DNA of 64,000 nucleotides from a virus (IMGVR_UViG_3300045912_000261:48534-112533); one strand, 5' to 3'; numbered from the stretch's first letter, positions 896-62,396 are shown. Translations and numbers: made by a program. Notes: generated by a model from the letters alone, not told the origin.

Positions 896-1239
896 GCGTG
901 CTTCAGTACCTTCCAGGGAATCGAGCGGCCAGTGCCCCTAACCTGCTTGATCGAGAAGCGCAGGGAATTGGTATCCGTGAGCTCGTTAGAGAGAGGCTCG
1001 GACGGCCACGTCTTTGTGTCAGCCGGCTGCGCATCTGCAACTATCTGGAACAGGGCTACCCTCTCGGTGCCTCCCGTGAGGGTCATCTGGTAGCCTCTGA
1101 TCTCCAGGAGGTCGCCGTTCGCCAGGGCGTTGAGGTCGAGGACCAGTTCGAATACTCCGGCGACGTTCGGCGAGGACAGGAAGTGCTCCGTACCGATCGT
1201 ACAGGACTGGGTGCCCGAAGCGTATGCGGTAACAGCCAT
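892..1239 (-). CDS. Putative virion structural protein
   Basis: 115-aa ORF translationally coupled on both sides in the tail-spike cluster. Confidence 0.55.
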   Translation of the reverse strand: MAVTAYASGTQSCTIGTEHFLSSPNVAGVFELVLDLNALANGDLLEIRGYQMTLTGGTERVALFQIVADAQPADTKTWPSEPLSNELTDTNSLRFSIKQVRGTGRSIPWKVLKHA

Positions 1240-2963
1240 TACGGACTCACATTCCTTACGACCCTTGCCCTAAGGGTTCCTGAACCCAGATCCACTGTGC
1301 CCCCGGTCCGGTTCATGATCGTAACCCTGACCGTGTCTGCGGCGGAGACGAATCCGTGTAGAATCCAGGAGCCACCGTTAGTTTCCACCGACGAGTGGTT
1401 TACTTCCACGAAGTCCCCCACAGCGGCTCCCGTTGCCGTCAGAGTTGTTGAGGCCGACGCCCCATCAGCCAGCGATGGGGGGTCGTACGTAGCCGTGGCG
1501 ACGATCACGTCGGGGGTAAACAGCGTGGTGTCGACTGTTGTCGAACCCAGGAGGTTGCGGTAAGCCCTGTTGGAGGATGCTGTCGTAGTATGCCCTGCTG
1601 CCTTGTTGGCAAACGTCGTAACAGTGCCCACGAAGCGGTTGTCTGCGAACAGAATGCCCGAGCTTGAGCCCGTTGCTCCAGAGCCCTCGGCAAAGCGTAG
1701 GACGACGTTTGCAGTGTCGAAGGTATTCCGACGGAACCAGATACGGTGGCCCTTCTCCAGCTTGATCACACGGGTGTCACCGTGGCCAACATCGGTGAAT
1801 ACGTTGTCGTCGATCTCCACGTCCCGGGCGGACTGGCTTGCTGCGAAGCCGATAGAGACGCCATTCCACCAGTAGTCGAAGACGTTGCCTACGATCTTGA
1901 CGCCCCGTACGCCCTGGATCTGGAAGGGGTTATTGCCCAAGTAGCTCGCGTCGTCACGGCCTCCGTTGCAGTAGTTGTTGGCGAAGATGATGTCGTTGTG
2001 GACGGTAGAGTCAGTCGGGTCTTGTACGTGAGAGAAGAAGGCCGCACACCTTACGCTGTTGAAGACGTTGTGGGCAACTACGACCCCTTGGGTCTTAGTT
2101 GTTAGGTCCGCCTGCGTGGGGATAATGTGGTACGCAACAGCTCCAGCGGTGCCGCGGCACTTCTCGAAGTAGTTACCCACGATGCGGATGTTGCGAATGA
2201 CGGCGAAGGTTGAACCTGAGTTGGGCTCGATGTCGATTGTCCCAGGCATGTCCGTGCGCGTGCTGTTGAGGAAGGTGCATCCCTGGATTAGAACGTCCCG
2301 ACCATCAATGATTGTGATGGCGTTCCTGTTGTCTTGGTTGATCCCGTCGAAGCGGCAGCCGACGATCTTGATGTACCTGTTGTGTCTCTCCACTCCGGCA
2401 GAGTGCGAAGAGGCAAGGTACAAACCGTCAGCACGGTACCCTCGGAAGTAGACATTCTGGATCAGTACGTCGTCCACTGCTGAGAGCGACATTAGGTGGA
2501 CGTTTTGTCCCGTGGCAAACCCATCAACGTCTACGGTCCCACGGAGCTGGAGATCCCTGAAGACCAGGTTTCGCCGGTTGGTTGCAGGGTCAGCAGTTCC
2601 TCCGGTGCCTGGGTTGACCTTAATCAGGTACAGAGGGGCTGTGCCCGTACGCTGCTTGATGATGGAGCCCCAGCCCTCTCCCCGGAGAGTGACGCTGTCA
2701 GCAGCTACCTCAAGGTCTGAACAGGAGTAAGTACCGCGGGGGAAGAACACGGTACCACCGGCAACTTCGGCTGCGTCAATGGCTGCCTGCACCGCAGTGG
2801 TGTCGTTCGTTGTTCCGTCCCCCGTGGCACCGTAATCCTTCACATTGAAGACCTGGGCTACGGCTAGTGAATAGACGTGCTCTCCAAAGTCCTCCAGGTT
2901 TACGGCCGAGAGGGGTGTTGCTGTTGAGGGGCTATTCTGCCACCCATAGTTGGTCCAAGGCAC
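1239..2963 (-). CDS. Tailspike, pectate lyase 3-like right-handed beta-helix
   Basis: FNVKDYGATGDGTTNDTTAVQAAIDAA...GGTVFFPRGTY motif followed by many I.GN.F / IDIEPN beta-helix repeats. Confidence 0.85.
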   Translation of the reverse strand: MPWTNYGWQNSPSTATPLSAVNLEDFGEHVYSLAVAQVFNVKDYGATGDGTTNDTTAVQAAIDAAEVAGGTVFFPRGTYSCSDLEVAADSVTLRGEGWGSIIKQRTGTAPLYLIKVNPGTGGTADPATNRRNLVFRDLQLRGTVDVDGFATGQNVHLMSLSAVDDVLIQNVYFRGYRADGLYLASSHSAGVERHNRYIKIVGCRFDGINQDNRNAITIIDGRDVLIQGCTFLNSTRTDMPGTIDIEPNSGSTFAVIRNIRIVGNYFEKCRGTAGAVAYHIIPTQADLTTKTQGVVVAHNVFNSVRCAAFFSHVQDPTDSTVHNDIIFANNYCNGGRDDASYLGNNPFQIQGVRGVKIVGNVFDYWWNGVSIGFAASQSARDVEIDDNVFTDVGHGDTRVIKLEKGHRIWFRRNTFDTANVVLRFAEGSGATGSSSGILFADNRFVGTVTTFANKAAGHTTTASSNRAYRNLLGSTTVDTTLFTPDVIVATATYDPPSLADGASASTTLTATGAAVGDFVEVNHSSVETNGGSWILHGFVSAADTVRVTIMNRTGGTVDLGSGTLRARVVRNVSP

Positions 2964-4498
2964 TAGACCTCCTCAGCACCTTCCAGCAGAGCGCCAACCT
3001 CTGCGATCAGGATGTCCGCGTTTGTGGAGATGTCGCCAACCGCGTCACGAAGGTTCGCAGCCCTCTCCGGGGCGCCCTGCCCCTCGATCCAGCCGGCGTA
3101 CTCCGGGCCCTGAACCGTGCCCACACGGCCTCGCCACTGCGTTGCACGATGCATCACTCGGGACATGATGGCTTCCTTCAGCTCCCGGGAGATCACGGGC
3201 TTCGGAGGCGGCGGAGGAGCGTTCTCGATCATGAAGGACGCCGTCTTCGTGGTCGAGTTACCCTTGGTGTCCGTTGCCGTTACCTCTAGCGTGTATCTTC
3301 CGTTGGGGATTTGCGTGGAGTCGAAGGTTCCCTCGTACGGGCTGGCCGTGTCGTCGAAGGTAAGGTCGGCCCCATCGCCAAAGAGACGGAAGCTTACCTT
3401 GGCAACCCCTGAAGGGTCAGCTGCCGTTGCAGCGTACCTAACCTCCCCGGAGAGCGGGCTCTCGGTAGGTGCCGTGATCATCAGGTCCGGGCCCGTAGTG
3501 TCGGGCGGCGGAGGGGGCGGAGGTGGCGTGATGCCCGGACGCAGCTGCGTGGGACCGAGATCCTTACACGGAGAGGTATCCTTGAGGCGATAGTCCCCGT
3601 TTGAGGGGTCCATGTACTGCGGATCGACGTTACGGATGCCTTCCGTGGAGTAGCCGGTGCCCTTCAGGCGGCCTCCTACCATTCCGGAAGCGTTCCAGAC
3701 GTTAGTGTTGATGACCTTGTTACCGGTACCTGGGGTGCATCCCCACCACGACTCGACCAGGGCGCGAGAGCTCTTCCTGGAGTTAGTGAAGATTGAATCC
3801 ACCACAACCGAGTCAGAGCTGTTCTGGCAGCCCGAGAACCCTGTGGTAGAGTCAGTTGCTCCTGAGAAGGTGATCCCTCCGTTGACTCTGTCAATGGTGT
3901 TGCGGCGCATAATGATGCCGTCGCCGTCAGGGTAAAGGTGGAAGGCCCAACCGTCGGTCAGGTCGTAGAACAGGCAGTCCTCGACGATACCTGACGCAGT
4001 CGACTTCAGGTAGAGTGGGTGATCGTGGTCAGCCCGGGCAGGGTCCCCAATCTTGGTGAACCGGCACCGTGAGAAACGGAAGTTCCGGCACTTGATCGAG
4101 GCCTGACCCAGTGTTGTGTGGATCCGGCCGGGGAACCCGTTCGTGCGGTTGGTGAGGAGGCAGTCCTCCATCGTGAAGTCGTGGCACATCACTAGCATCG
4201 TGCCCGATGCCTGCGTGCTCACTCCCCCGTCGAGCCAGAAGCCTCGCATTACGATACCCGCGGCTCCGGATCCTACCGAGAAACGTCCCAGCACCTTGAC
4301 TGGAAGCCCCATATGGGCCTCTTTCCTGAGTGCCATTCCCTCAGTCCAGCCTTCAGCTTGGATGACGACCCTCTTGTTCAGGCTGAAGAAGCCTGATCCG
4401 AGGGAGTGGGTCCCAGCCTTCAACAGAAGAGTGTCTCCTGCGGAGGCTGCAGAGTACTTCGATGAAAATTGTCCCGGCGCTACTTCTAGTGTGGCCAT
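2963..4498 (-). CDS. Right-handed beta-helix protein with Pro linker and Ig-like domain (putative depolymerase)
   Basis: Start moved to ATG 4498 (GGAGGAG SD); beta-helix repeats, HDHPLYLK, DPQY..PSNGDYRL..TSP, poly-P, then Ig-like D.SGVAKV.F...PYEGTFDS...NGRYTLEVTATD.KGN. Confidence 0.75.
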   Translation of the reverse strand: MATLEVAPGQFSSKYSAASAGDTLLLKAGTHSLGSGFFSLNKRVVIQAEGWTEGMALRKEAHMGLPVKVLGRFSVGSGAAGIVMRGFWLDGGVSTQASGTMLVMCHDFTMEDCLLTNRTNGFPGRIHTTLGQASIKCRNFRFSRCRFTKIGDPARADHDHPLYLKSTASGIVEDCLFYDLTDGWAFHLYPDGDGIIMRRNTIDRVNGGITFSGATDSTTGFSGCQNSSDSVVVDSIFTNSRKSSRALVESWWGCTPGTGNKVINTNVWNASGMVGGRLKGTGYSTEGIRNVDPQYMDPSNGDYRLKDTSPCKDLGPTQLRPGITPPPPPPPPDTTGPDLMITAPTESPLSGEVRYAATAADPSGVAKVSFRLFGDGADLTFDDTASPYEGTFDSTQIPNGRYTLEVTATDTKGNSTTKTASFMIENAPPPPPKPVISRELKEAIMSRVMHRATQWRGRVGTVQGPEYAGWIEGQGAPERAANLRDAVGDISTNADILIAEVGALLEGAEEV

Positions 4499-4585
4499 CT
4501 CTCCTCCAGTGGGGTAGGCCTTATCGCTAGGATAGGTAGTAGAACTAGGTGCCCGAGTTGACGCGACGAGCACCTAGCCCACCCC

Positions 4586-5363: not shown

Positions 5364-6157
5364 TACGACTCCGGCAGGTAGGACTTAGTACCGCGGAAGT
5401 CGCTACGGTACCTAAGGGGTAGAACTCTCACCGGGTTGGAGCCGAAGCTCACCACGTGCGTTCCGGAGACTGTGTACCCAAGGAGAGCACTAGCCTTCTG
5501 CGCCGAGATCACAACGGCCATATGCGAAGGCCCCCCACGGTTGATGGAACGCGAGTCGTACCCGTAGAAAGCCAGGTCTCCCGGCTGCGGGTTGTCAGTT
5601 GTGAACTTACCCCGAGGCCAAATGGTACCGGTGAACCCGTACCCGTTGTACCCGAACCCGTTAGGATCGGGTGCCCCGGCCTCATGATAGATCACGGTTG
5701 AAGATGATGAACAGTCGTAGTACCCCCTCGGGCGGGAGAAGGGCCGCAGCAGGTACGGCCGCAACCAAGAGTACTGGAAGCGCCAGCGCTCGAGGTAGAA
5801 CCGACCTGCTGCGTCCTCGATCTTCCGCCCCAGGGACGACTCCTCTGCCTTCTTGCGCGCGATGGCCTTCGCCCGCTGCCGCGCGTACATTCGAGCAAGG
5901 AGGATCCTGTCGTAGCGACCTAGGAATGGCTCGAGCTTTGCCCAAGCCTCCTGCCCAAACGTCAGCCCGATAACGGGGCGAATCCCGTAGGCGTGCTTGA
6001 AGCGGTTGACGTCCTCGATGGTCTTTACACCGTACCCACCCTGCCTGTTGTTCTTGTGGGGAAGCCCCTTGGCGTGGAGCGCACGGTGGAGACCATTCTG
6101 CATCGCCCTAACCGCGAGGTTGCGGGCACCTGCTCTTAGATTGGGGCGGTATGCCAT
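5363..6157 (-). CDS. Endolysin, NlpC/P60 peptidase with N-terminal peptidoglycan-binding-like region
   Basis: YYDCSS (catalytic Cys), PGDLAFYG, HMAVV (His); next to holin-like gene. Confidence 0.8.
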   Translation of the reverse strand: MAYRPNLRAGARNLAVRAMQNGLHRALHAKGLPHKNNRQGGYGVKTIEDVNRFKHAYGIRPVIGLTFGQEAWAKLEPFLGRYDRILLARMYARQRAKAIARKKAEESSLGRKIEDAAGRFYLERWRFQYSWLRPYLLRPFSRPRGYYDCSSSSTVIYHEAGAPDPNGFGYNGYGFTGTIWPRGKFTTDNPQPGDLAFYGYDSRSINRGGPSHMAVVISAQKASALLGYTVSGTHVVSFGSNPVRVLPLRYRSDFRGTKSYLPES

Positions 6158-7631: not shown

Positions 7632-9365
7632 CTAGACGGGATCGCCTGCTGCGCTGATGTCAGCCAGGAAGGCCCCCTCAGCGGCAAGGACTACATTGAT
7701 ACCTGCTGGCTTAAGCTCTTGTACGAGCTCGGTCATAGCCCTATAGAGGGCATCACCTGGCTCGGCGGGCAGCCTGATAGTAACTGTGTACGTCGGGTAG
7801 GTGTCCACAATTCCAATATCCTGACCCGCGGGGGCGCCTACGGACTTGACGAATTCGGTCCTGGCCTCGTCGCTGAGTACGAACCTGCGCGCGACCACCA
7901 GGGCTCGACGGTCTGCCAACCTTAGCTCCGAGTACGATGGGAGGCCAAGTTGTCTCTCCCAGTCAGCAATAGCCCAGGTGACCTTACTGGGAATTGACTG
8001 GAAGACGCAATCTTCAAGCATCACGTAGATGTCCGCCAGAGCCTTGGCGTGGACGGTATATAGTCCATTCCCGAGGGAGCTCTCCCTGAGGAAGTCGGGC
8101 ATGTACAAACTGCGAAAACGTCCCACAACGTCGTGGACTGTCCAGATCCACACAAAGGATTCCTGGAAGATAATTGTGGGCCCCGTCGACGGAGCCGAGA
8201 CTCTCAGGCGTAACGTGTACTGGACTCCCTGCTGGAAAGGGGGTTCGACCCAAAATCCGAACTTGCCAACTTTGTCCAGGTCGACTGTAGTTGTCATCCA
8301 AGAGCCGTGCACTCCGGAGATGATGAGCTGCCACTCGATCGTGCCATCTGTAATTGGTGCCAGAACCTCTCCAGAGACGCGGTAGCGTCCATTACCGACG
8401 GCTCCAGGCCGCCAGAAGGGATCGAGGACGACGTTGGAGACTTCGACGGACTCGTGGGTAACGTTTCCTAGTACCCACTCACCTCGGCCCTGCTGGTCGT
8501 ATTGAAGCTGAACACCGTCTGGGAAACTAACCGCCGCCGAAAGTTCACCCCTACCCTCAATGAGAATGTCGGCGGTTCCGACTTCGGCGGACAGCTCACC
8601 CCTGCCAGAAACGTTGGCCTCGAGCTCCGTCGGAGGGGTAATAACTGTGAACGGAGTAAGACCCCTACGGTTGAGAAGGGACGGCGTTCTAGTGGGAGGC
8701 CCTCCTAAGGCGTCTGTAGGCGTTCCGTTAAGGGCCCCAACGTCACCGCTGCCTGACAGGTCGTAGATCAGGGAGGTGTTCCACAGAGGCCGTGCATCCA
8801 AGACGCTTCTTAGGACGTAGCCCCTCCACATTACTGTCCTGAGCTCGCCCTCCGTGAGGGCTACGTCGTACCAAGAAACGTAGGCCAGATCCCCGCCAAG
8901 AGCGAAGCCGAAGCTGGGGTCGTTTCCGTAGTGCGGGCGAACACTTCCGGGCGTGAGGCCAGCTGCCGTAGGTGCAATACTGGTGGTTACAGTACGGCTC
9001 GTTGGCCAGGAGTCAACTGCTGGGTCAGAATGGTACACTGTGGGGGTGTTCGTCCCCACTTGAGTAATGGCGAGGAATAGCCACTTTACGCCATTGCCCA
9101 CATGGACCATGTTGGCCGCCGTTACCCACCAGCGGGCAGTCTCGTTACCCGTCTCTCTGTCAATGATGATCCGGCCAGCCTCAGCTGAGCCAAAGTAGAT
9201 GTCGATCGGGAGAGTGGACCCCTCCCCGAAGGACGTTACGTTTCGGTTCGCCGCGGCCGCATTCCACCTGTACCAACAGCAGAAGGTCCAGTCGGAGGGC
9301 GCAGTCAGGTCCGCCGCAGCTCTGCGGACGGCCTGGGTAGAGGCTGCAGCGAAGTTTACTGGCAC
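7632..9365 (-). CDS. Baseplate wedge protein (XkdU/DUF2313-like C-terminus) fused to N-terminal LamG-like domain
   Basis: C-term YMPDF...WAIADWERQLGLP...RRALV...LKPAGI; N-term WTFCCW...WLFLAIT...GDLAYVSWYDVALT. Confidence 0.65.
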   Translation of the reverse strand: MPVNFAAASTQAVRRAAADLTAPSDWTFCCWYRWNAAAANRNVTSFGEGSTLPIDIYFGSAEAGRIIIDRETGNETARWWVTAANMVHVGNGVKWLFLAITQVGTNTPTVYHSDPAVDSWPTSRTVTTSIAPTAAGLTPGSVRPHYGNDPSFGFALGGDLAYVSWYDVALTEGELRTVMWRGYVLRSVLDARPLWNTSLIYDLSGSGDVGALNGTPTDALGGPPTRTPSLLNRRGLTPFTVITPPTELEANVSGRGELSAEVGTADILIEGRGELSAAVSFPDGVQLQYDQQGRGEWVLGNVTHESVEVSNVVLDPFWRPGAVGNGRYRVSGEVLAPITDGTIEWQLIISGVHGSWMTTTVDLDKVGKFGFWVEPPFQQGVQYTLRLRVSAPSTGPTIIFQESFVWIWTVHDVVGRFRSLYMPDFLRESSLGNGLYTVHAKALADIYVMLEDCVFQSIPSKVTWAIADWERQLGLPSYSELRLADRRALVVARRFVLSDEARTEFVKSVGAPAGQDIGIVDTYPTYTVTIRLPAEPGDALYRAMTELVQELKPAGINVVLAAEGAFLADISAAGDPV

Positions 9366-25305: not shown

Positions 25306-25766
25306 AGGCGGCTAATTACCTTCCAGCGGTAGAACATACCTTCCATCCGCCCTCGGAGGGTTCGCTCGAAGTTGCGAGCTCCGCGGGCAAACATTTTCAC
25401 AGGAGCGGTTCCAGGGTGCTGTACGTTATCGTAGAAGACAACTTGCCCCTTTCGTCCCCAGTAAAACTTGAGGGCCTTCTTTCCAGTTCCATGCTTGATC
25501 TGGTGGGGCCGAGTACCGTCCTCAACGAAGCTTGCGTAGGGGAGCTCGCTCTTCGCACCTCCCCGCCAAGTTCGAAGACGGATTCTCTGAGTCCTGATGG
25601 GCTCGATGGAGTCCCACAAGCGGCCAGTCTTGACAGGGGTCACCCGCCGGATATGCTGTACGAGCTCCTCAGACTCTTCCTCTGTGAGCCTACGCATAAA
25701 GAAGGGAAGGTGAAAGAGACCAAGGTCAATGGAACGGACGACTGATCCCCGAACGTAAACAGGCAT
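25302..25766 (-). CDS. HK97 gp10-like neck protein
   Basis: TPVKTGRLWDSI...YASFVEDGTRPH.I...KALKF...VQHPGT. Confidence 0.85.
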   Translation of the reverse strand: MPVYVRGSVVRSIDLGLFHLPFFMRRLTEEESEELVQHIRRVTPVKTGRLWDSIEPIRTQRIRLRTWRGGAKSELPYASFVEDGTRPHQIKHGTGKKALKFYWGRKGQVVFYDNVQHPGTAPVKMFARGARNFERTLRGRMEGMFYRWKVISRL

Positions 25767-26703: not shown

Positions 26704-26761
26704 TACTTGAGGCGGTGGATTGGCCCCTCACACAGTGTGCTAGGAGCCATTCCTTACCGTC

Positions 26762-27289: not shown

Positions 27290-27301
27290 TTACTACCTCC
27301 G

Positions 27302-28345: not shown

Positions 28346-28381
28346 TTGCCTTACTCCTCTAGTTGCTGGTCGTGGACTACG

Positions 28382-28738: not shown

Positions 28739-28773
28739 GCTCTATTGCTCCTAACTATCTCGAACGGGATGGG

Positions 28774-32085: not shown

Positions 32086-32107
32086 AAACTCTGTGGTCCT
32101 ATCTCTT

Positions 32108-32146: not shown

Positions 32147-32165
32147 GGTCTATTTTAGTATGGGG

Positions 32166-38373: not shown

Positions 38374-40489
38374 CGCCGTTGCTCCTGAACCGTTCTTCTG
38401 CGATGGCCCGACGTAAGGCCTCCACAGCGGCAGCATCCTCCTGCCCCATAGTCACGCCCGTGTGGGCTCCTGGGAAAGGCTGCTGTGTGGTAAGCCGCTC
38501 GGGGGCCCCCGCAAAGGGGCCTGCGATGCCGAGGCCTCCGGTACCCACAGCTGCCCCTGCCGTGGGGTTGGCAGGATTAGGTGCCGGGCCGACTGCCGAC
38601 CCAGGTGCCCCTGGTGCTCCGGGGGCTCCTGGTGGGAGACCGGGTACCATACCTGCTCCAGGTTCCATACCGGGCTGCTGAGGCTGCTGGTTCTCGATGC
38701 CTTCGGGGTAGACCTGCCGAACAACGGCATCTGGGTCGGGGTAGCCGAGCCACAAGAGAACCTGCTGGAGGGTGAGGCGCTTGAGCGGGACGTCCGTAGC
38801 GAACGGATCCAGGCGGGCCATTGTGTTGGTGAGCGAGGCAACCAGCTCGGGGATCGAACGCTGCATGATGTTGGGCATCTCGACGTAGAAGGTTCGGTCG
38901 ATCTGCTCTGGCAGCGCTCCATCATCAATTGCCTTGTCGATGCAGAAGTCGATCACCTTGGTGACCATCTGCTCGAATAGCTCCTGCCTCGCCTCCATCA
39001 TCTTCAGGACGGGCTGCTCCATGGCCGTAGCGTTCGCTAGGTTGGCGCTCCCCTTGTCCCCGAGATAATGGATGGGGAGTCCTAGGGCGACACCAACCTG
39101 CCCACGCAGCATCTGGGCGTCTTGCTCGGCCTCTCCAGCACCTGATGTGGTCTTGAACTGCTCCAGGTTCTCGTTCTGGTTCTCAGTCAGAACCGACCCA
39201 GGGGCAGGAGGCGCGACGGGGTCGAAGTCGGCCGGGAGGCCTGTACGGCCCATGCCAGAGACCATCCTCTGGGCAGCCTGTACAACTGCCTGGGAACCTC
39301 CCTTCACCTTCTTACGGAAGATGAACGTGGCTAGAGCGCGAAGGAGGGTCAGCCTCCAGGTGAAGAAATCGTTGAGGGCCCGTGCCCAGCGGACAGCACG
39401 CCAAAGTTCAGAGTTCCCCCGCAGCTGGAAGCTGTGCCTGTTGACCATGATGTGGAGAATCTTGCCCTCACCCATTTTGGACTGGGGAGGACTACTTTGG
39501 TCAGGCTCAGGCGGATAGAAGAGGTCCTCGTAGTACCTGGTGATTCTCTCCTGTGGCCCTGCAAAGGCCCACGATCCGTCACCAGTATAGTCGTACTTCT
39601 TCTTGACGATCACCCTCTTGTAGTACCGAGGCTTAGCCGCGTTCTCCTCGTCGGGAATGACGTCCTCGATCTCGTTGGGGTGAATCTGCCCCAACTTGAC
39701 AGCCGAGGGGGGAGGAGGTGGCTCCGGCTTCTGCTTCTCTCCAGGCTTCGGCGGCTCAGCCTCCGGCTCCTCAATCTCAGGCTCTGGCATCCTTCCGGTG
39801 AGGTCTGGGTCCTCGCTGGGAGGGAGCAGTGCCTGCATGGTAGGATTAGGTGCCGAGCCGTTTGGTCCCGAGCCGTTGGGTGCTCCGTTAGATGAGCTGG
39901 GGAGGCCGATCTCCTCTTCGTCTTCGGGTGGGGCGAGGTCATCAGGGGACCACTCACCCTGATCAAACAGCACGAGGAAGAGCTCGCCGAAGAGAGTGAG
40001 CTCAGTGCCCTTGCAAACTTGTGCTTCGTACGAAGTGAGGATCAGCTTGTTGTCCGGGTCCTCCCAGAACGACCTGATGAGTCGCTGGATCCTCTTGTCT
40101 AGAGCTCGCGGCATTGGAAGACCACGGCCCCAGACGTACTCGTTCATTGTGTCGACGCCGCGACCTGCAACAGGATCTTCCCGCCAGATCTTCTCAGCCT
40201 GCTCGTTCCTTGCGCGGCGGGCCTTAGGCGTCATGTCTAGGGAATCAAGGAGACCGGTTCGCTGCGCAGAGATGAGGTCCCAGGAGAAGTCTTCCTGGAG
40301 CGTCTCCCGCATCATAAGCTCGGCCTGGGCGTCGGAGATACTCTCCGTCAGGTCCAGAATCCGGTCGCGGAGCTCAGCCGATGTGGTCTCCTCCAAACTA
40401 TCTACCCTCTCCTCGATGGTAGGACTGGGTGCCGAGTTGGCTGCGTTGGCCGACTCAGCTGGCTCACGGAAGAAGTCTAGGAGGCCCAT
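38366..40489 (-). CDS. Portal protein
   Basis: After terminase; DP.A.R.VD....YVWGRG, FW.DP.N, GELFL, RGNSEL, GLP.HYLGD..AN.A.A..ME.P; Pro-rich insertions. Confidence 0.85.
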   Translation of the reverse strand: MGLLDFFREPAESANAANSAPSPTIEERVDSLEETTSAELRDRILDLTESISDAQAELMMRETLQEDFSWDLISAQRTGLLDSLDMTPKARRARNEQAEKIWREDPVAGRGVDTMNEYVWGRGLPMPRALDKRIQRLIRSFWEDPDNKLILTSYEAQVCKGTELTLFGELFLVLFDQGEWSPDDLAPPEDEEEIGLPSSSNGAPNGSGPNGSAPNPTMQALLPPSEDPDLTGRMPEPEIEEPEAEPPKPGEKQKPEPPPPPSAVKLGQIHPNEIEDVIPDEENAAKPRYYKRVIVKKKYDYTGDGSWAFAGPQERITRYYEDLFYPPEPDQSSPPQSKMGEGKILHIMVNRHSFQLRGNSELWRAVRWARALNDFFTWRLTLLRALATFIFRKKVKGGSQAVVQAAQRMVSGMGRTGLPADFDPVAPPAPGSVLTENQNENLEQFKTTSGAGEAEQDAQMLRGQVGVALGLPIHYLGDKGSANLANATAMEQPVLKMMEARQELFEQMVTKVIDFCIDKAIDDGALPEQIDRTFYVEMPNIMQRSIPELVASLTNTMARLDPFATDVPLKRLTLQQVLLWLGYPDPDAVVRQVYPEGIENQQPQQPGMEPGAGMVPGLPPGAPGAPGAPGSAVGPAPNPANPTAGAAVGTGGLGIAGPFAGAPERLTTQQPFPGAHTGVTMGQEDAAAVEALRRAIAEERFRSNGGV

Positions 40490-40747
40490 CTAGAGTTCCT
40501 CTCGGGGGTTGTCGGCACGCCAAGTGGGACATCCGTCATAGTCCCGGGTGCAGCGCCCGAAGTAGGTGTTCGGAGAATTGCGGGCTTCAATGAGATGCCC
40601 TTCGATCCGGCAGAGGCATACATGCCGCGATACCTGTAGACCTGCAGGACATCTCACGGGAGGATCGAGAAGCTCCTGAGATCGATGTTCCTCTACGAAC
40701 CGGCGGAGATCGACGTCGTCGCGGTCGAGAATCTTGGAGAGTCCCAT
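40490..40747 (-). CDS. Small Cys-rich protein
   Basis: 85 aa, five Cys, between TerL and portal. Confidence 0.55.
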   Translation of the reverse strand: MGLSKILDRDDVDLRRFVEEHRSQELLDPPVRCPAGLQVSRHVCLCRIEGHLIEARNSPNTYFGRCTRDYDGCPTWRADNPREEL

Positions 40748-40752
40748 ATCGG

Positions 40753-42918
40753 CTAGTACCTCACGCCTTCGTAAGTCTCAATGCCCAGGTCGTCCAGAGT
40801 GACGTAGTCCTCGCCGGGCATCGTAAGTACGCTGTGACCGAAGCGGGACAGGTACCCCACGACACCAGCAACGGAATCTGAGGTCTCCTTGAGCCCCGTG
40901 ATGCTCTGTCCGCCATCCTCTAGCTGCATGAGCTCCCTGGACGCCCAGCCATAGTTCATCACGCGGATACGACCCTCGTTGACCGCGAGCTGGAGGTCTG
41001 TGTAGGGCTGCTTGTCAACTGCCATAGGAGCTCCGGTTCCATAGGGGACCCCTGTGTTGGGATCGATCAGCGCGCCCACGGTTACGAGACCAGCCCTAAC
41101 AAACTTCTGTACCAGCGAGGCACTCTGGAAACCTGCCACACTAGCCGACGTGATGAGGAACCTCCGCACCTGGCGAAGGGCAATGATGAAGTCTGCACAT
41201 GCGCCTAGGTTTAGGTGCCCCACACGTGGCGCGATGACACGCATCACTAGGGGCACTTCGAAAAGGGGCACCTCAACTTCCATAGGCGCGTTCTCGATGA
41301 ACGTAACAACCCGCTTCCAGTTGGAGATGCGCCCCAGGGCAACAGACGCAATCCCGCCTCCGGCAGCTACCGAGAGGTGTGCATGCCACAGAATCTGCGC
41401 GTCGCCCTGGAACTCAGGCTTCAGGGCTGCCAGCAGAGTGTCCAAGGAGCTACCGTCTGCCACTAGCCACTCTGAGCGCTCTGCTGCGGTCTCCTCCGTG
41501 GTCTCAGTGTCGGAATCCGCATCTGGATCCCACTTGTCGGTAGCAAGAATGCTCGAGGAGTAGTCCCTAATGGCTCCTTCAGGGTTCAGCTGGGACTGGA
41601 GAACGAATGCCTCGTCGATCTTGCGGCCCTCTGGGAACAGCATCCGGCGGCCGGGACGCTCAGCGAGCATGATGCCTGCCATCGACATCGTGTCCACCTG
41701 GTCGTCATGGTCCCCGTTCGGGAAGTTCAAGAGCTCTTCCTCCCAGTCGGGAAGCCAGGGTGCCGAGTCGCGAGCATACACAGTCCCTGCTGCGAAGCGC
41801 GCAAGGATACTCGAGGCCCGGGAAACCTTGTCCTTGTCGGCAGGGATGGGTCTGACAGGGAGGCCCTCCCTAAGGGCTGTCTGCACCACACTCAGCTGGA
41901 AGCCGGTCTTCTCAATCCCGATGTACCCGGGGTGCCACTTCTGGTACACCCTATTGAGGAGGTTGATGTGATCCGGGCCAGCCATGCGGGATCGCTGCAC
42001 ATCTAGCACCAGGAGGTCAGCCTCGGGAGTCACCCCGAACACAGAAACGACAGAGTAGTCCGCTGTCTCCTTCAGGGATGTTGCAAGGTCGGTCGTGGCA
42101 AATCGGAAGAGGTCCTGGGGAGCTACGGTCTTTAGATCCCCATTGCTTTGTAGGAGCTGGTAGAATCCAGTGCTGGGGTCGACAGTGAAGTACTTGAACC
42201 ACTCAGGCTTGAACTGGTGGGCGCCAGGAGCGATGAACTGGGCCTCGTACTCTTGTGCAAACTTGTAGGGTCCCAGCTCGAGCTTAGCAGCCTCAATCTC
42301 GGTCTGGGGGATCTTGGGATTGTCAGCTGTGGGCCTCTGCCACCGCGCCCAATCACCCAGCTTCGGTACCCGTTCGAAGAGCTTCCAGAACCAGTTGCGT
42401 CCCTGGGGAGTGGAGATGAAGATGCACCAACCTTCACGGTCGGAGAGCGCGGGGCGCAGGGCCTCAGCCCAGGCGTCCTCTTTCACATAGGCAGCCTCGT
42501 CGATAACGAGGCCGTCTAGACCTGAGCCTCGAAGCGAGTCGGGGTTGTCAGTTGACCTCACAGTAATGCTGCCGCCACCAGGAAGAACGATCCGGCGCTC
42601 CACCTCACTCTTTTCGACCCAGGCTCCGATAAGAGCCTTCTTCAGGTCGCGCCAGATCTGGTTGGAGATGTTATAGGTGGGGCAAACCCACCAGACATTG
42701 CCTCCCTGGAGAGCACCAATTCGGGGGCTGTCTGCGGGGCCGTGACCCTGAACCACTGACATGAGACCCAAGACGGTCTTCCCCCAGCGGCGCCCACAGC
42801 AGCAAACCTTGAAGCGTGCAGGGGACTCTAACACTACGGCCTGGTGCTGCAGCGCTCTCGGCAGGATGATGCGCGGAACATCCTCCAAGTCTAGGGGTCG
42901 ACCAGCCGTTACGGGCAT
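40753..42918 (-). CDS. terL: Terminase large subunit with C-terminal extension
   Basis: GRRWGKT Walker A, LRG.GLDGLVIDEAA Walker B, ISTP.G.NWF, nuclease DLA...DYS...IEK...FPNGDHDDQVD. Confidence 0.95.
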   Translation of the reverse strand: MPVTAGRPLDLEDVPRIILPRALQHQAVVLESPARFKVCCCGRRWGKTVLGLMSVVQGHGPADSPRIGALQGGNVWWVCPTYNISNQIWRDLKKALIGAWVEKSEVERRIVLPGGGSITVRSTDNPDSLRGSGLDGLVIDEAAYVKEDAWAEALRPALSDREGWCIFISTPQGRNWFWKLFERVPKLGDWARWQRPTADNPKIPQTEIEAAKLELGPYKFAQEYEAQFIAPGAHQFKPEWFKYFTVDPSTGFYQLLQSNGDLKTVAPQDLFRFATTDLATSLKETADYSVVSVFGVTPEADLLVLDVQRSRMAGPDHINLLNRVYQKWHPGYIGIEKTGFQLSVVQTALREGLPVRPIPADKDKVSRASSILARFAAGTVYARDSAPWLPDWEEELLNFPNGDHDDQVDTMSMAGIMLAERPGRRMLFPEGRKIDEAFVLQSQLNPEGAIRDYSSSILATDKWDPDADSDTETTEETAAERSEWLVADGSSLDTLLAALKPEFQGDAQILWHAHLSVAAGGGIASVALGRISNWKRVVTFIENAPMEVEVPLFEVPLVMRVIAPRVGHLNLGACADFIIALRQVRRFLITSASVAGFQSASLVQKFVRAGLVTVGALIDPNTGVPYGTGAPMAVDKQPYTDLQLAVNEGRIRVMNYGWASRELMQLEDGGQSITGLKETSDSVAGVVGYLSRFGHSVLTMPGEDYVTLDDLGIETYEGVRY

Positions 42919-42924: not shown

Positions 42925-43092
42925 CTACTGCCTCCAGGTCTCTACGGTGAGCAATAGGTCCTCAAGGGAAGCTCCTTCGAGCAGGGAGATTTCGAGCTCC
43001 CTCATTAGAGCCTCATGCCCTCGGTTGGAGGGCTGGAGCTTCTCTCTGGTCTGCTCTGCTAGAGCTTCGTGCCAATCTAGTTGGTAGGACAT
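42925..43092 (-). CDS. 55-aa hypothetical protein
   Basis: Manual translation MSYQLDWHEAL...VETWRQ fills the gap; its ATG lies inside a dispersed-motif copy. Confidence 0.45.
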   Translation of the reverse strand: MSYQLDWHEALAEQTREKLQPSNRGHEALMRELEISLLEGASLEDLLLTVETWRQ

Positions 43093-43124
43093 GGTGCCCG
43101 AGTCGACTTGTGGTGGGACGGTAA

Positions 43125-43608: not shown

Positions 43609-43959
43609 CTACTTTTTGAAGAGTCCTGTCAGTACTGCTAGAGGCAGGTACCCCATCAGCAGAAGATACGCGGCTAGGAGAGGAGCTGCCACCGTTCCGT
43701 CCCGGGAGTCGAAGAAGAGAAGGGCTCCGCCAAAGATGAAAGCTACCACTGTCGAGATAACCGGCCACCAGACCCGAAACCACTGAGGAGGCCCATCTGG
43801 AGGGTAGGGATTCTCCTTGCCCTTGATGCCTCCGTTGCCGCTGTCGCTGTCGCTGCCGTTGCCTCCCCTCCTGCTCCCTCTGGGCCTCTTCTGCCCCCTC
43901 TGGGGCTCGGTTGACATCAGGAGCCCTGGGAGCAAGCCTACCGCTGCCGTAGACATCAC
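43609..43959 (-). CDS. Two-TM membrane protein (holin-like)
   Basis: Two C-terminal hydrophobic helices, ATGA overlap with HNH gene. Confidence 0.55.
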   Translation of the reverse strand: MMSTAAVGLLPGLLMSTEPQRGQKRPRGSRRGGNGSDSDSGNGGIKGKENPYPPDGPPQWFRVWWPVISTVVAFIFGGALLFFDSRDGTVAAPLLAAYLLLMGYLPLAVLTGLFKK

Positions 43960-44531
43960 CCATGGATCTCTTGTGGAACTGGATCTGAGGGTGCGATGGG
44001 ATTAGGTGCCCGAGTCGTCGAGACGATAGGACTAGGTGCCCGAGTTGCCGAGTCGGTAGGTACTGGAGGAATGTCGCTGCCGTCGTAAGGACGCTTGAGA
44101 TTGCACTCCCGGCAGATGATTCTTACGTTGGAGCGCATGTGCTTGCCTCCACGTGCAATGGGGACAATGTGGTCCAGATTACGACTTCTCTCGTGACCAG
44201 GACGGTTAGCCAACTTTCTCTGGCACAGAGGACACGTCGTTGTAGAGCGCCAGAGCTCGATCATCCACTCGCTAGTAATGTCAGTGTGCTGCTGCCTCGC
44301 CCTCCGGAGGTGAAGCTGGTTGACAAACTCCGCCTTATCTTCCGGACTGGGGCCTAGAGTAGCTAGGTACCGCTTCCTGCGCGCCCGAGCGGATTGGTAC
44401 TTCCGCATGCACTCCTTGCATCTGTGCTGCAGCCCATCTTTCGACTCGGTCCGGCGGTAGAAGGCCTCTCTCGGCTTCCGCTTGTGGCACTTGTTGCACA
44501 CCTTCGTTCGAGACTGTGTCTGAGTTGCCAC
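43956..44531 (-). CDS. HNH endonuclease with N-terminal zinc ribbon
   Basis: CNKC...DGLQHRCKEC; CPLC...LDHIVP..RGGKH..SNV..ICRECN. Confidence 0.9.
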   Translation of the reverse strand: MATQTQSRTKVCNKCHKRKPREAFYRRTESKDGLQHRCKECMRKYQSARARRKRYLATLGPSPEDKAEFVNQLHLRRARQQHTDITSEWMIELWRSTTTCPLCQRKLANRPGHERSRNLDHIVPIARGGKHMRSNVRIICRECNLKRPYDGSDIPPVPTDSATRAPSPIVSTTRAPNPIAPSDPVPQEIHG

Positions 44532-44562
44532 GATAGGACTGGGTGCCCGAGTAGCCCTGGCG

Positions 44563-45105
44563 CTAGCTACTGCGCCAGTCGACTTCTTCGGGAAGCTTAT
44601 TGTGCTTCCGGCAGTTACAGGACTTGCAGGCTGGAGTTACATTCTCTAGCTCGTGCCGTCCACCCCTGCTGACGGGTACAATGTGATCTACTGTGACAGT
44701 ACCTGGAGTAAGAGTGATTTCGCAGTACGTACACTTCCAGCCCAAGAATTCACATAGCTCGAAAAAGTCCCTCAGGTCTAGATAGCCTCCAGCCTCAGTC
44801 CTACGCGCTCGGTAAGCATGCTGCCAGTTGCGCTGTTTCTCCCTGTTGCGCTCTAGGTACTCTTGCTGTTGCTCCCGAATCCAGTCCGCATTCAGTTTCC
44901 TATACTGGCGATTGTACTCTGAGATGTGCCCTTTGTGTTGTAAGCCCCAAGCTTTTCTACTGGGGTAGGATTCACCGTTGTGGCAAGGCTTACAGCGCCA
45001 AGAGCGCCCTTTGCGGCCGCTTCGGTTCTTGTAAAAGGCCCCAGGAGGCAAATCTTGACCACACTTTCCGCAGCGGAGCAACTCCTGTTCCCTTACAAGA
45101 TTCAA
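44563..45105 (-). CDS. HNH endonuclease with N-terminal zinc ribbon
   Basis: CGKC...CKPC; CTYC...VDHIVPVSRGGRH...NVTPACKSCN..K. Confidence 0.9.
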   Translation of the reverse strand: MNLVREQELLRCGKCGQDLPPGAFYKNRSGRKGRSWRCKPCHNGESYPSRKAWGLQHKGHISEYNRQYRKLNADWIREQQQEYLERNREKQRNWQHAYRARRTEAGGYLDLRDFFELCEFLGWKCTYCEITLTPGTVTVDHIVPVSRGGRHELENVTPACKSCNCRKHNKLPEEVDWRSS

Positions 45106-45990: not shown

Positions 45991-46100
45991 CGACCGATTT
46001 AGTCTCCGAGCCCAAACCGACTTGATCGGGCACCTGCCCCCCCCCCGTCCAAACCCTGCCTGTTTTGCCTGCCCCCTTGTAGGAGAAGAGACGGCTGCGC

Positions 46101-50071: not shown

Positions 50072-50223
50072 TTCTTGTGCCTTGAGTGATTTCTTTCTTG
50101 TGCCTTGAGTGATTTCTTTCTTGTGCCTTAAGTAGGTTCTTTCTTGTGCCTTACTGATTTCTTGTGCCTCGAGTAGGTACTTCTTGTGCCTTGTCTTGTG
50201 TTCTGAGTAGGTTCTTGTGCCTT
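50072..50223. repeat. Iteron-like tandem repeats (TTCTTGTGCCT)
   Basis: About 8 copies, first four at 23-bp period. Confidence 0.85.
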
Positions 50224-52396: not shown

Positions 52397-52408
52397 GACA
52401 CCTAGCAG

Positions 52409-52456
52409 CCCGGCACCGGAGTCTACCGCTAGCAACTCGGGCACCGGAGTCTACCG
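52409..52456 (+). repeat. Dispersed motif, tandem pair (CGG(G)CACCGGAGTCTACC)
   Basis: Two copies at operon end, just before a promoter. Confidence 0.8.
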
Positions 52457-52465
52457 GCACGAGTT

Positions 52466-54149: not shown

Positions 54150-54451
54150 TGGGACAGAAGGAACTGGACGAGTACCGTCGGCAGGAGAGGGAGGAGAGCC
54201 TGAGGATCATGCAGACCCCTCCCGGGTGGTTCATGTGGCCCGTCCTCCCCGTCAAGAGGCGGAAGCCCGATGGGGGCTGGCCCGACTTGGGGATCATGAT
54301 CGACGTCGACGAGCACCGCCACAAGGTGTTCCGTGTGGGGCTGTACTCACTGAAGAAGAACGTCCCACTGGAGGAACAGCTCCACGGCATCGAGGTGGAT
54401 CGCTACGAGAGCCTGGAAGAGGTCATCGAGGCCGGCTGGGTCGTCGACTAG
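54149..54451 (+). CDS. Conserved-looking phage protein (W..WPVLPVKR...Y.SLEE...AGWVVD)
   Basis: TAGTG overlap; motif recognisable from small phage proteins of unknown function. Confidence 0.65.
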   Translation: MGQKELDEYRRQEREESLRIMQTPPGWFMWPVLPVKRRKPDGGWPDLGIMIDVDEHRHKVFRVGLYSLKKNVPLEEQLHGIEVDRYESLEEVIEAGWVVD

Positions 54452-54453
54452 CT

Positions 54454-54504
54454 GACTCGGGCACACTATCCTACCGCCTGACGACTCGGGCACCGGAGTC
54501 TACC
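54454..54504 (+). repeat. Dispersed motif, tandem pair
   Basis: GACTCGGGCACACTATCCTACC and GACTCGGGCACCGGAGTCTACC. Confidence 0.8.
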
Positions 54505-54507
54505 ACA

Positions 54508-54582
54508 ATGGACGTCATCTGGTTCCCCTTGACCATCATCGCCCTGCTCCTGTTCTGGCGGGCCGGCTCTAAGGAGGTCTAG
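54508..54582 (+). CDS. 24-aa hydrophobic peptide
   Basis: MDVIWFPLTIIALLLFWRAGSKEV; GGAG inside the motif could serve as SD. Confidence 0.45.
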   Translation: MDVIWFPLTIIALLLFWRAGSKEV

Positions 54583-54785: not shown

Positions 54786-54836
54786 TTGAAGATTTTTTGA
54801 AACCCCTTGAAATGCCTAGAGGGACCGCTCTATAAT
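54786..54836 (+). promoter_or_regulatory. Class-B promoter
   Basis: TTGAAA-N18-TATAAT with TTGAAG and TTGAAA upstream. Confidence 0.8.
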
Positions 54837-59250: not shown

Positions 59251-59259
59251 GCACCCTCG

Positions 59260-59310
59260 CAACTCGGGCACCTAATCCTACCACCCGGCAGCTCGGCACC
59301 CTGTCCTACC
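59260..59310 (+). repeat. Dispersed motif, tandem pair
   Basis: CAACTCGGGCACCTAATCCTACC and GCTCGGCACCCTGTCCTACC. Confidence 0.8.
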
Positions 59311-59338
59311 GGAAAGGCTCCTGAGAGGGAGCCTTTCC
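59311..59338 (+). terminator. Hairpin, possible terminator
   Basis: GGAAAGGCTCC/GGAGCCTTTCC 11-bp stem, no clear U-tract. Confidence 0.5.
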
Positions 59339-62205: not shown

Positions 62206-62342
62206 TGGGAATTGTCATTGGGCTAGCGGCCCTCTTCATACTCGTCCTTTTCAACCCCACACTGGCGATGATTCCTGCTGCTCTACTAGTCATCTGGTGG
62301 CTCTTTAGCGTGGGCCGCTGGGGCAAAATCCGCCGCTGGTAG
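62205..62342 (+). CDS. 45-aa membrane peptide
   Basis: TAATG overlap; MGIVIGLAALFILVLFNPTLAMIPAALLVIWWLFSVGRWGKIRRW. Confidence 0.55.
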   Translation: MGIVIGLAALFILVLFNPTLAMIPAALLVIWWLFSVGRWGKIRRW

Positions 62343-62356
62343 TGCCAGCACCAAGC

Positions 62357-62396
62357 CGACTCGGGCACCAAGCCGACTCGGGCACCTAATCCTACC
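62357..62396 (+). repeat. Dispersed motif, tandem pair
   Basis: CGACTCGGGCACCAAG and CGACTCGGGCACCTAATCCTACC. Confidence 0.8.

Follow-up and report, generated by a model that had tools for sequence, protein, structure and literature searches.

An asymmetric 29-bp repeat in an uncultured tailed phage is oriented by chromosome position and not by gene direction

The window analyzed here is a 64,000-nucleotide stretch of a 112.5-kb contig from an uncultured tailed phage. The phage is a myovirus of an orphan lineage; its TerL is at most 26% identical to that of any cultured phage, and no close relatives were found in the collections searched. Tail, portal, and large terminase genes lie in the left part of the window, and a divergent control region lies beside the small terminase gene. 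This region is non-coding and contains a 308-nt C-free tract and 23-bp repeats. A second non-coding landmark, an iteron-like array with a 28-bp period, is found at the contig end. To the left of the window, contig positions 1–45.7 kb carry plus-strand genes for replication and nucleotide metabolism, identified by homology: ligase, exonuclease, a Sak4-like annealing protein, QueC, FolE, dUTPase, a SNF2 helicase, a DUF3854 primase-helicase, and PolA. We refer to this 44-kb region as the replication arm. In addition to its own ligase the phage encodes four HNH endonucleases and an ECF-type sigma factor of 178 amino acids with regions 2 and 4, the gene for which is adjoined by an ORF with weak similarity to ribbon-helix-helix proteins.

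An asymmetric motif recurs throughout the contig. With a position weight matrix refined on the whole contig, 37 copies scored at least 18 bits (strong copies below), and about 45 copies were present when weak ones were counted. No site reached 18 bits in Markov-simulated genomes (n = 20), confirming that the repeated motif proposed from the window sequence alone is real. There are 26 occurrences within the window, and the looser pattern GGCACC-N3-TCCTAC with up to two mismatches matched the window 41 times as compared with 7.5 ± 2.7 times in shuffles. The unit is longer than had been proposed. Information is contiguous from −12 to +16 around GGCACC with no conservation beyond those bounds, making a unit of ∼29 bp that carries ∼25 bits. 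As a cis-acting DNA signal, the motif has two tightly conserved blocks, GGCACC and CCTAC, separated by 4 variable bp. GGCACC is mismatched in just 3 of the 37 copies, and adjacent positions are free to vary. An invariant core and a variable 4-bp spacer within one 29-bp block point to direct readout by a protein and not to recent copying alone. Neither strand of the units gave a fold signal (fold z-scores −2.1 to +0.4). Correlated spacer-variant sub-families, of GGAG type and of TAA/TAG type, are present in all three regions of the chromosome, the GGAG variant being the only one with a Shine-Dalgarno core. Tandem units are frequent, with a spacing of 22–30 bp. The overall density is one copy per 2.5–3 kb, but spacing is irregular; copies crowd around the packaging genes and are almost missing from the tail genes, where gaps of 8–16 kb occur. 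The sequence-only reading had also suggested that the motif shares pentamers, and hence perhaps a binder, with the terminal array. That array does have a strong C periodicity of 5 nt (autocorrelation 0.27 versus 0.00 ± 0.05 in shuffles), and the motif can be parsed likewise, but the two have no sequence in common.

The copies in the window are as follows (window coordinates).

1195 to 1227, minus strand, weak copy of 20.1 bits just within the start of a 115-aa ORF
4533 to 4565, minus strand, 33.2 bits, between two tail-region genes
5655 to 5687, minus strand, weak copy of 13.5 bits
14473 to 14505, minus strand, weak copy of the GGAG variant, 11.9 bits
21980 to 22012, minus strand, 20.9 bits
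30356 to 30388, minus strand, 33.3 bits, in a low-complexity linker of a 1103-aa ORF, encoding TRAPSPP
30398 to 30430, minus strand, 23.6 bits, in the same linker of the 1103-aa ORF as the preceding copy
30763 to 30795, plus strand, orientation exception of 26.9 bits, antisense in the 1103-aa ORF, where it is read as GQGAR
30820 to 30852, plus strand, orientation exception of the GGAG variant, 20.7 bits, head-to-head with the next copy
30869 to 30901, minus strand, 24.0 bits, encoding DSAPNPT
37095 to 37127, minus strand, 30.5 bits, in the N-terminal linker of a 1697-aa ORF, encoding TRAPSPP
38565 to 38597, minus strand, 20.1 bits, in the portal's variable C-terminal tail
39834 to 39866, minus strand, 21.5 bits, in an indel-rich portal linker that is missing in a 57%-identical relative
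40413 to 40445, minus strand, 27.3 bits, in a variable N-terminal segment of the portal (aa 17–24)
42154 to 42186, minus strand, degenerate copy of 23.6 bits within the large terminase gene
43078 to 43110, minus strand, 33.7 bits, preceding the large terminase gene and 14 nt past the upstream gene's stop
43990 to 44052, minus strand, tandem pair of 31.8 and 37.6 bits, 30 bp apart, beyond the HNH domain of the second HNH ORF, in its tail
44527 to 44559, minus strand, 27.3 bits, filling the 31-nt gap between two HNH endonuclease genes
46020 to 46036, plus strand, only the 5′ half of a unit, at the edge of the divergent control region
52400 to 52460, plus strand, tandem pair of 18.8 and 31.8 bits, 28 bp apart, past the stop of the last gene of a transcription unit and 28 nt before a sigma70-like −35 element
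54448 to 54509, plus strand, tandem pair of 25.9 and 31.4 bits, 29 bp apart, overlapping the upstream stop codon and ending 4 nt before an ATG
59255 to 59315, plus strand, tandem pair of 35.7 and 23.1 bits, 28 bp apart, followed by a hairpin with a 12-bp stem and then by a promoter at 59383
62347 to 62401, plus strand, duplicated 17-bp 5′ half-units and then one full unit of 34.5 bits, upstream of a promoter at 62471

The positions given by the sequence-only reading were correct to within a few bases, including a degenerate plus-strand copy at 9875 and the two plus-strand exceptions at 30763 and 30820, both of which are real and lie within the 1103-aa ORF. Two of its copies are weak (1202, 20.1 bits; 14478, 11.9 bits), and two others (41758 and 46026) are 5′ halves only. 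It had omitted the minus-strand copies at 21980 (20.9 bits), 42154 (23.6 bits), and 5655 (13.5 bits).

The polarity noted in the window was borne out: below 46 kb there are 17 strong minus-strand copies and the two plus-strand exceptions, and beyond 52 kb there are 7 plus-strand copies. In contig coordinates, minus-strand copies extend from 11 to 93 kb and plus-strand copies from 101 to 111 kb. The minus orientation persists for another 37 kb to the left of the window, crossing a second strand switch. The replication arm has 13 strong and 3 weak copies, at contig 11–46 kb, and every one of them is minus and thus antisense to the genes there. Between 11 and 93 kb, across the convergent junction between the replication and structural arms, 28 of 30 strong copies are minus, and the 7 copies at 101–111 kb are plus. 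A rule by which the motif points away from the 93–101 kb region is satisfied by 35 of the 37 copies, and a rule by which it points with the genes is violated by 15 of the 37 strong copies. Because the minus orientation is kept across the second strand switch, where it is antisense, polarity follows chromosome position and not transcription. The boundaries between the two polarity domains fall at the divergent control region and the iteron-like array. The contig is ∼90% complete and one of the two polarity switches falls at its ends, so that this boundary is poorly defined. Base skews track transcription only and gave no independent replication direction. No other word with the same polarity domains was found.

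The phage tolerates copies only at places with room for ∼30 bp, in gaps after stop codons and in flexible protein linkers. At least 19 of the 37 copies are non-coding, although non-coding DNA makes up at most 18% of the genome (p = 6e-6). The coding copies are confined to flexible linkers and low-complexity or indel-rich segments, and a loop in the exonuclease domain of PolA carries a ∼30-aa insert made of three units. Ten of 11 sense coding copies are in one frame (Ala-Pro-Ser/Asn-Pro), as are 7 of 7 antisense coding copies (Gly-Ala). Such a near-constant, benign frame for each orientation at low-complexity or indel-rich sites shows that the DNA is kept and not the peptide. The right-arm pairs lie at operon ends, as previously noted, between the last stop codon of a transcription unit and the next sigma70-like promoter. 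No unit overlaps any sigma70-like promoter found, the nearest ending 28–29 bp upstream of a −35 element.

The decoupling of polarity from transcription argues against stoperators, start-associated sequences, promoters, and RNA elements and favors a strand-specific signal at the DNA level. We consider that the motif is probably a signal of this type with a non-transcriptional role. With its strand set by position, it is most likely read on the DNA itself, in nicking, priming, or fork control, and not in gene expression. The conservation pattern implies that a protein, presumably one of the phage's own, recognizes the sequence and acts on a single DNA strand. The meeting of the domains at the divergent region and the iteron-like array suggests that the choice of strand reflects the direction of some genome-scale DNA transaction, most simply the movement of replication forks. 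A link to replication, nicking, or priming is our best reading, although with less than even confidence, and nicking specifically is a more tentative proposal. In the mechanism that we find most likely, the marked strand would be nicked site-specifically, or primed, at the units, with the four HNH endonucleases as candidate nicking enzymes, and the resulting interruptions would parallel the localized single-strand interruptions of T5, tf, and the phiKMV-group phages. This mechanism, including nicking, the binder, and the origin, is inferred in its entirety.

Several observations fit this scheme poorly. The 7 right-arm copies and the 2 exceptions are off-strand, whereas T5, tf, and the phiKMV phages use one strand genome-wide. 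Tandem pairs 22–30 bp apart fit cooperative protein binding better than nicking, and the irregular spacing, with its long gaps in the tail genes, is unlike that of regular priming sites. Neither the likeness to the phiKMV consensus nor that to the RP4 nick region (below) is significant once the number of motifs compared is counted. A link to replication also has against it the transcription-bound skews, the lack of another word with these polarity domains, and the lack of an HUH relaxase or Rep motif in any plausible ORF.

An unlikely alternative is that the units are polar, stoperator-like roadblocks for RNA polymerase, at which an asymmetrically bound phage protein halts transcription arriving from one direction. 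Two strong divergent promoters at 94–95 kb would provide the reference for site orientation, and the sites would gate the leftward late transcripts and the rightward early ones. Those in the replication arm would halt convergent transcription or antisense read-through. The arrays in both arms do occupy expected terminator positions between the last stop codon and the next promoter, tandem units are suited to cooperative binding, and the ribbon-helix-helix protein could be the binder. The copy number is near the 20–30 sites of cluster A phages, which are likewise asymmetric and lie in short gaps and at some coding positions (PMC9283540, PMC6550527). Against this stand the antisense orientation of all 13 strong replication-arm copies and the absence of units from sigma70-like promoters. 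No repressor or integrase was recognized in the phage, and, with sense copies inside the portal and other late genes, binding would have to be timed if the late operon were not to be blocked.

The two opposed orientation domains, bounded by two non-coding landmarks, would also fit a guide or gate that does not nick, in which asymmetric binding sites pass or load a DNA-tracking machine in one direction only. The machine could be the replisome, or the SNF2 or terminase translocase, and the arrangement would be formally like Ter/Tus-RTP barriers or KOPS. The phage owns a primase-helicase, PolA, and the SNF2 helicase, and Ter and RTP sites resemble the units in length (23–30 bp) and in having tandem sub-sites. 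However, ∼45 sites far exceed known fork traps, copies are dense at packaging genes and almost absent from tail genes, and neither origin is supported by replication skew. No Tus/RTP-like terminator protein was recognized among the ORFs scanned with Pfam and PHROGs, a set that takes in only part of the small ORFs. We regard this possibility as improbable.

There is little likelihood that the motif is a selfish or neutral mini-repeat of no use to the phage. Such a repeat would multiply by insertion or copying, replication would give it its strand bias (as when single-strand transposition targets the lagging-strand template), and it would survive only where harmless. Its restriction to permissive places (post-stop gaps, disordered linkers, the PolA loop insert), the sub-families with correlated spacers in all three regions, and the half-unit duplications would be accounted for. 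On the other hand, the very uneven conservation indicates selection for recognition, the units lack terminal inverted repeats, hairpins, and target duplications, and neither a transposase nor an HUH gene was found. The phage, metagenome, and bacterial collections searched gave no other genome with several copies of the motif. Finally, a promoter for the ECF-type sigma factor is very unlikely, as is an RNA-level site for processing or antitermination, which the sequence-only reading had also put forward: the phage has such a sigma factor, units lie upstream of genes in the sense direction in the structural and right arms, and the equivalent LUZ19 motif was originally annotated as a phage promoter, but the information forms one continuous block that peaks at the would-be spacer and not two elements 15–18 bp apart (a misfit to the ECF-type layout), the next start codon adjoins or lies within several units, the RNA that 16 copies would drive or mark is antisense, the units have no RNA structure, and no phage RNA polymerase motif (T7-type or DFDGD) was found.

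Under the preferred reading of a strand-specific DNA signal, the units might, more speculatively, constitute a chromosome-scale direction code for a phage DNA machine, with ∼45 asymmetric docking or nicking sites marking one strand in the direction leading away from, or toward, two landmarks, the cos-proximal divergent region and the iteron-like origin. If so, a replisome, nick-primed strand-displacement system, or translocase would always know its direction of travel. To our knowledge, no tailed phage has been described with a comparable array, one that is long, private to the phage, polar in two domains, and decoupled from transcription.

Among known systems, T-DNA borders are 25-bp imperfect direct repeats that are polar and act strand-specifically. 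The nick region of RP4, the site of a MOB-P relaxase (CACCTA-TCCTG/CCC; sequence from an oligonucleotide in PMC3772185), agrees with the motif's TAA variant at 12 of 14 positions in an alignment that has one gap. Unlike relaxase nic sites and T-DNA borders, the units have no inverted repeat 5′ of the site and no hairpin beside them, and no relaxase or HUH motif occurs in plausible ORFs; the base before the presumed cut is A in 30 of the 37 copies, and not the required G. The motif was accordingly rejected as a nic site or border.

Chi, KOPS, and the Ter/Tus and RTP sites are asymmetric and oriented in two opposed chromosome domains rather than by gene set, and Ter and RTP sites also have adjacent sub-sites and a similar length; Ter sites are of far lower copy number than the units. 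Chi and KOPS are words of 5–8 nt that occur abundantly in the host genome and that host machines read. A Chi/KOPS-like polar signal had been suggested, and the position-set polarity does persist through a change of gene direction, but a phage-private unit of 29 bp and 25 bits is not a word of the Chi/KOPS type: 185,579 bacterial species representatives (596 Gb) gave 53 single hits and no multi-copy genome, close to a rough chance estimate of a few dozen.

Start-associated sequences of cluster K mycobacteriophages lie 3–7 bp upstream of start codons and include the Shine-Dalgarno core (PMC3203893); here only 3 or 4 of the 37 units abut a start codon and 16 copies are antisense, and this class was rejected. 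The stoperators of cluster A mycobacteriophages (L5 gp71-type repressor) are like the units in numbering dozens of asymmetric sites, mostly in short gaps with some in genes, and in their strikingly uniform orientation within large domains. They are 13–14 bp long and oriented with transcription, and some of them are true operators located within promoters (PMC9283540, PMC6550527); a monomeric repressor binds them and blocks elongation. The units are 29 bp long, about one-third are antisense to genes, and none is in a promoter; by these definitions the earlier suggestion of stoperators does not hold, the orientation rule being broken by 15 of the 37 strong copies.

The nick sites of the tf/T5/phiKMV group (including LUZ19 and phiKF77) belong to phages unrelated to this one. 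Such a site is defined by a nick with adjoining 3′-OH and 5′-P ends at a set position in virion DNA. Their words are single and 7–19 bp long and each set lies on one strand genome-wide, in contrast to the 29-bp, often tandem units seen here, which are known from sequence only and switch strand in the right 18 kb. In LUZ19, four nick-associated motifs (CGACC-N4-CCTAC...) lie in gene gaps directly after stop codons; the spacing and 8 of 10 core positions match the motif, with ACC-N4-CCTAC in common and differing flanks, a match that is not significant after multiple comparisons. Phage tf has 14 nick sites, all on the top strand and spanning two convergent transcription units (PMC3517423), at a density of one per 3.3 kb that is similar to that of the units. 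As with the units, one conserved asymmetric word marks each site. The strand is fixed whatever the gene direction, which for the units holds across the convergent junction (28 of 30 strong copies) but not for the 7 plus-strand copies at 101–111 kb.

Within the window, 41 sites match a loose pattern for the motif, compared with an expectation of 7.5. Scoring with a weight matrix that had been refined on the whole contig found 37 strong sites (≥18 bits) and about eight weaker ones, and none in simulated genomes. The motif proposed in the sequence-only reading is thus real; all coordinates in its copy list hold, but three minus-strand copies had been missed and two of the listed copies are half-units. 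The information in the motif forms a single contiguous block running from −12 to +16 relative to GGCACC (∼29 bp, ∼25 bits), beyond which nothing is conserved. Information peaks at GGCACC and CCTAC, which are separated by four variable bases (TAAT, TAGT, CAGT, CTGT, ATGT, GGAG, and others). Of the 37 copies, all but three match GGCACC exactly, whereas the adjoining positions are free to vary. Such uneven conservation indicates sequence-specific recognition rather than recent copying alone. No RNA or DNA hairpin consistent across units was found.

This phage, a myovirus, belongs to an orphan lineage. Its 112,533-bp contig, of which the window is the final 64 kb (48534-112533), is classed as linear and ∼90% complete in the IMG/VR record. 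The window encodes a tail sheath, a major head protein fused to a protease-like region, a portal, and the large and small terminases, with two HNH endonucleases between the terminase genes. This HNH pair suggests what we take to be cos-type packaging, with ends near 94.5 kb. To the left of the window, genes on the plus strand encode a DUF3854 primase-helicase, an ATP-dependent ligase, a SNF2 helicase, an exonuclease, a Sak4-like annealing protein, an SSB-like protein, a QueC/QueD/QueE/FolE set, a dUTPase, an ECF-type sigma factor, and PolA. The features referred to below are as follows, where a genome coordinate is the window coordinate plus 48533 and L101 denotes a stretch of the same contig left of the window.

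Window 43956-44531: HNH endonuclease
Window 44563-45105: HNH endonuclease
Genome 8113-8961: HNH endonuclease
Genome 29319-29936: HNH endonuclease, between QueD and QueE
Genome 25594-34862: 7-deazaguanine (preQ0-type) pathway (QueC, QueD, QueE-like, GTP cyclohydrolase I)
Genome 32428-32724 (L101:12428-12724): 98-aa ORF upstream of the sigma factor gene, weak ribbon-helix-helix match
Genome 32712-33248, plus (L101:12712-13248): ECF-type sigma factor, 178 aa, Pfam Sigma70_r2 and r4_2, PHROG 1740
Genome 38932-41475, plus: PolA, with an N-terminal uracil-DNA-glycosylase-like (UDG) domain
Window 32459-37552, minus: 1697-aa ORF between the portal and head genes, without a family match overall
Window 54807-54836, plus: strong sigma70-like promoter
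Genome 3426, 7826, 11373, 16979, 22191, 26434, and 35998, plus: strong sigma70-like promoters
Window 48940, 50278, 52488, 59383, and 62471: looser sigma70-like promoters
Window 50072-50193: four tandem 23-bp repeats (or 46 bp × 2.8)
Window 63620-64000: terminal array, 12 anchors (CGAAGCGAC-like) ∼28 bp apart

The 7-deazaguanine pathway suggests that the phage DNA carries modified guanines. Residues 918-1041 of the 1697-aa ORF are similar to the phage's own DprA-like protein, and the ORF is possibly a packaged polyvalent protein.

In the window alone the motif seems to track the genes, being minus-oriented where the structural genes run leftward and plus-oriented where the early genes run rightward. 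Seen over the entire contig, this agreement proves to be coincidental. Codon-usage scoring resolves only two blocks of gene direction, a rightward block from ∼94.5 kb via the contig ends up to 45.7 kb and a leftward block from 94.45 kb down to 45.7 kb. Between 11.2 and 45.6 kb the genes run rightward, but all 13 strong and all three weak copies are on the minus strand. A count of orientation over the whole genome, the check that the sequence-only reading had proposed, was run with the weight matrix and revealed not random orientation but two opposed domains: 28 of 30 strong copies are minus from 11 to 93 kb, and 7 of 7 are plus from 101 to 111 kb. The motif switch at 93-101 kb coincides with a switch in gene direction. 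The second motif switch falls between 110.9 and 11.2 kb via the contig ends, where gene direction is unchanged, and at 45.7 kb gene direction switches but motif orientation does not. With two switches of each kind, and one of each coinciding, transcription and position can be separated as the basis of the polarity, and transcription fails. GC and AT skews track gene direction only and give no separate replication signal, and no other 6-8-mer was found to share the polarity domains of the motif.

In the switch region at 93-101 kb, which is free of the motif, there are divergent promoters next to the small terminase gene, a C-free tract of 308 nt, and, at 98.6 kb, the four 23-bp repeats. These repeats, candidate iterons or operators, lie in 0.9 kb of non-coding DNA that immediately precedes two early promoters. 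The switch region at the contig ends contains the 12-unit terminal array (period ∼28 bp), inside which the contig terminates; the array may serve as an origin of the iteron type, or may have caused the assembly to break there. Its spacers have a 5-nt C periodicity (autocorrelation 0.27, >5 S.D. above shuffles), and the motif does parse as five NNNYC pentamers interrupted by GG(G). To this extent the link drawn earlier between the two repeats stands, but they have no sequence in common, and a shared binder is no more than possible. An array of the same anchored type is present in an unrelated phage, on an IMG/VR contig that encodes a distant relative of the TerL (L082:2568-3363), where 13 anchors (AGCGAGCCA), for the most part spaced 36 or 72 bp from one another, alternate with AGAnAACCA words. 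Blastn and tblastx comparison of the contig ends detected no similarity and no terminal repeat, and the exact matches between the ends amount to a few words of 12-15 nt. The first 15 bases of the contig (genome 1-15) recur exactly at 111451-111465 (window 62918-62932), 1.1 kb from the right end, which is possibly an assembly-graph artefact.

At least 19 of the 37 strong copies are non-coding, although non-coding DNA accounts for no more than 18% of the genome (p = 6e-6). Units occur singly or as tandem arrays with a spacing of 22-30 bp, and typically start at, or within ∼20 nt of, the stop codon of the upstream gene. Coding copies are confined to low-complexity or indel-rich segments, namely three variable portal segments, linkers in the proteins of 1103 and 1697 aa, an HNH protein tail, C-terminal tails, and a segment of PolA. 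In PolA, three antisense units encode a ∼30-aa low-complexity insert (residues 251-279; L101:19682-19768) in the 3′-5′ exonuclease domain, where the Pfam envelope suggests ∼34 extra residues. Ten of 11 sense coding copies are in the frame that reads Ala-Pro-Ser/Asn-Pro, and all seven antisense coding copies are in the frame that reads Gly-Ala. Among the 77 higher-confidence ORFs kept, six of eight AP[SN]P peptides are motif-encoded. The frame use and this share of motif-encoded peptides indicate that it is the DNA that is conserved and that the protein merely tolerates it.

Exact-motif scans gave 10 matches in IMG/VR, 6 in JGI metagenomes, and 53 in a set of one genome per bacterial or archaeal species, all of them single chance matches without homology to this phage. 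The length of the motif and its absence from bacterial genomes exclude a host Chi/KOPS-type word, one of the functions first suggested for it. DNA searches of the phage collection returned no match. The closest TerL in IMG/VR is 49% identical (cultured phages, ≤26%), and the IMG/VR loci of these TerL relatives lack the motif. Protein-level relatives also exist (TerL 83 and 56%, portal 57%); the motif-encoded peptides are absent from the 57% portal relative. The identical portal is also carried by a second contig, whose end lies 120 nt away from a motif and gives no sign of a break at a site.

Asymmetric repeated words in phages are usually explained by transcription, as promoters or repressor sites. 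What remains here, and is somewhat more likely than not, is a DNA-level, strand-specific signal, apparently read by a specific protein and polar on the scale of the chromosome. As replication is the simplest polar process on that scale, forks are proposed as the basis of the polarity. Forks would start from one of the switch regions and terminate at the second, or would proceed to the ends of a linear molecule, and the marked strand would be nicked or primed site-specifically at the motif. On the sequence evidence a replication-linked, strand-specific reading of the motif may apply, a proposal that we hold tentatively and at somewhat less than even confidence. Nicking specifically at the motif is more doubtful. 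The HNH family includes strand-specific nickases with long asymmetric sites, and we count in favor of nicking that the phage encodes its own ligase besides four HNH endonucleases. Counted against it are the strand switch in the right arm, the frequent tandem units, and the long unit, all of which a bound protein complex would fit at least as well.

A polar roadblock to RNA polymerase, oriented relative to divergent promoters, is unlikely. In both rightward arms some arrays precede promoters of a sigma70-like family (TTGAWW-N18-TAnAAT, with a conserved TTGAA...TTTT element located ∼20 nt upstream of the −35), but they never overlap them, and roughly one in two of these promoters lacks an array. 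A non-nicking gate of the Ter or KOPS kind is improbable. A selfish, strand-biased mini-repeat, set against the uneven conservation around GGCACC, is distinctly improbable. The units flank the second HNH gene, yet other HNH genes have none and paralogues are few, which led us to reject a homing-endonuclease cassette. Promoter and RNA-level readings, taken jointly, are very improbable: the lack of structure and the antisense orientation of a third of the copies argue strongly against an RNA element, and a promoter is disfavored by the one continuous information block, the antisense copies, and the lack of a phage RNA polymerase motif. The ECF sigma factor is in principle a possible reader of the motif, but a two-element promoter layout does not fit; by-eye comparison of the information profile with sigma-54, ops, hrp-box, and ECF layouts gave misfits in spacing, and no late promoter pattern of T4 or ECF type stood out. 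Stoperators, the first function suggested, are defined by co-orientation with transcription and by operator copies within promoters (PMC9283540, PMC6550527), and the motif has neither feature. Start-associated sequences lie 3-7 bp before start codons (PMC3203893), a distance at which only a few units are found.

Several documented systems resemble the proposed replication-linked reading. No relaxase-type gene is present, and the nick region of RP4 is similar to the TAA variant of the motif. In the phiKMV group, four LUZ19 nick-associated motifs start right after stop codons and have ACC-N4-CCTAC in common with the motif. Given the number of motifs compared, these two likenesses are not significant and may serve as leads only. 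The closest documented behavior is that of phage tf, in which 14 nick sites lie on one strand throughout and span two convergent transcription units (PMC3517423). Being short, specific (∼25 bits), and orientation-dependent, the motif would lend itself readily to in vitro tests and might find use as a tool, whether it is nicked or bound. If the copies are protein gates, this would make them the first phage example of a Ter- or KOPS-like system. If they are nicks or priming points, the unexplained localized nicks of T5, tf, and phiKMV would extend to an unrelated large myovirus and be tied to replication polarity, giving their function a testable meaning.
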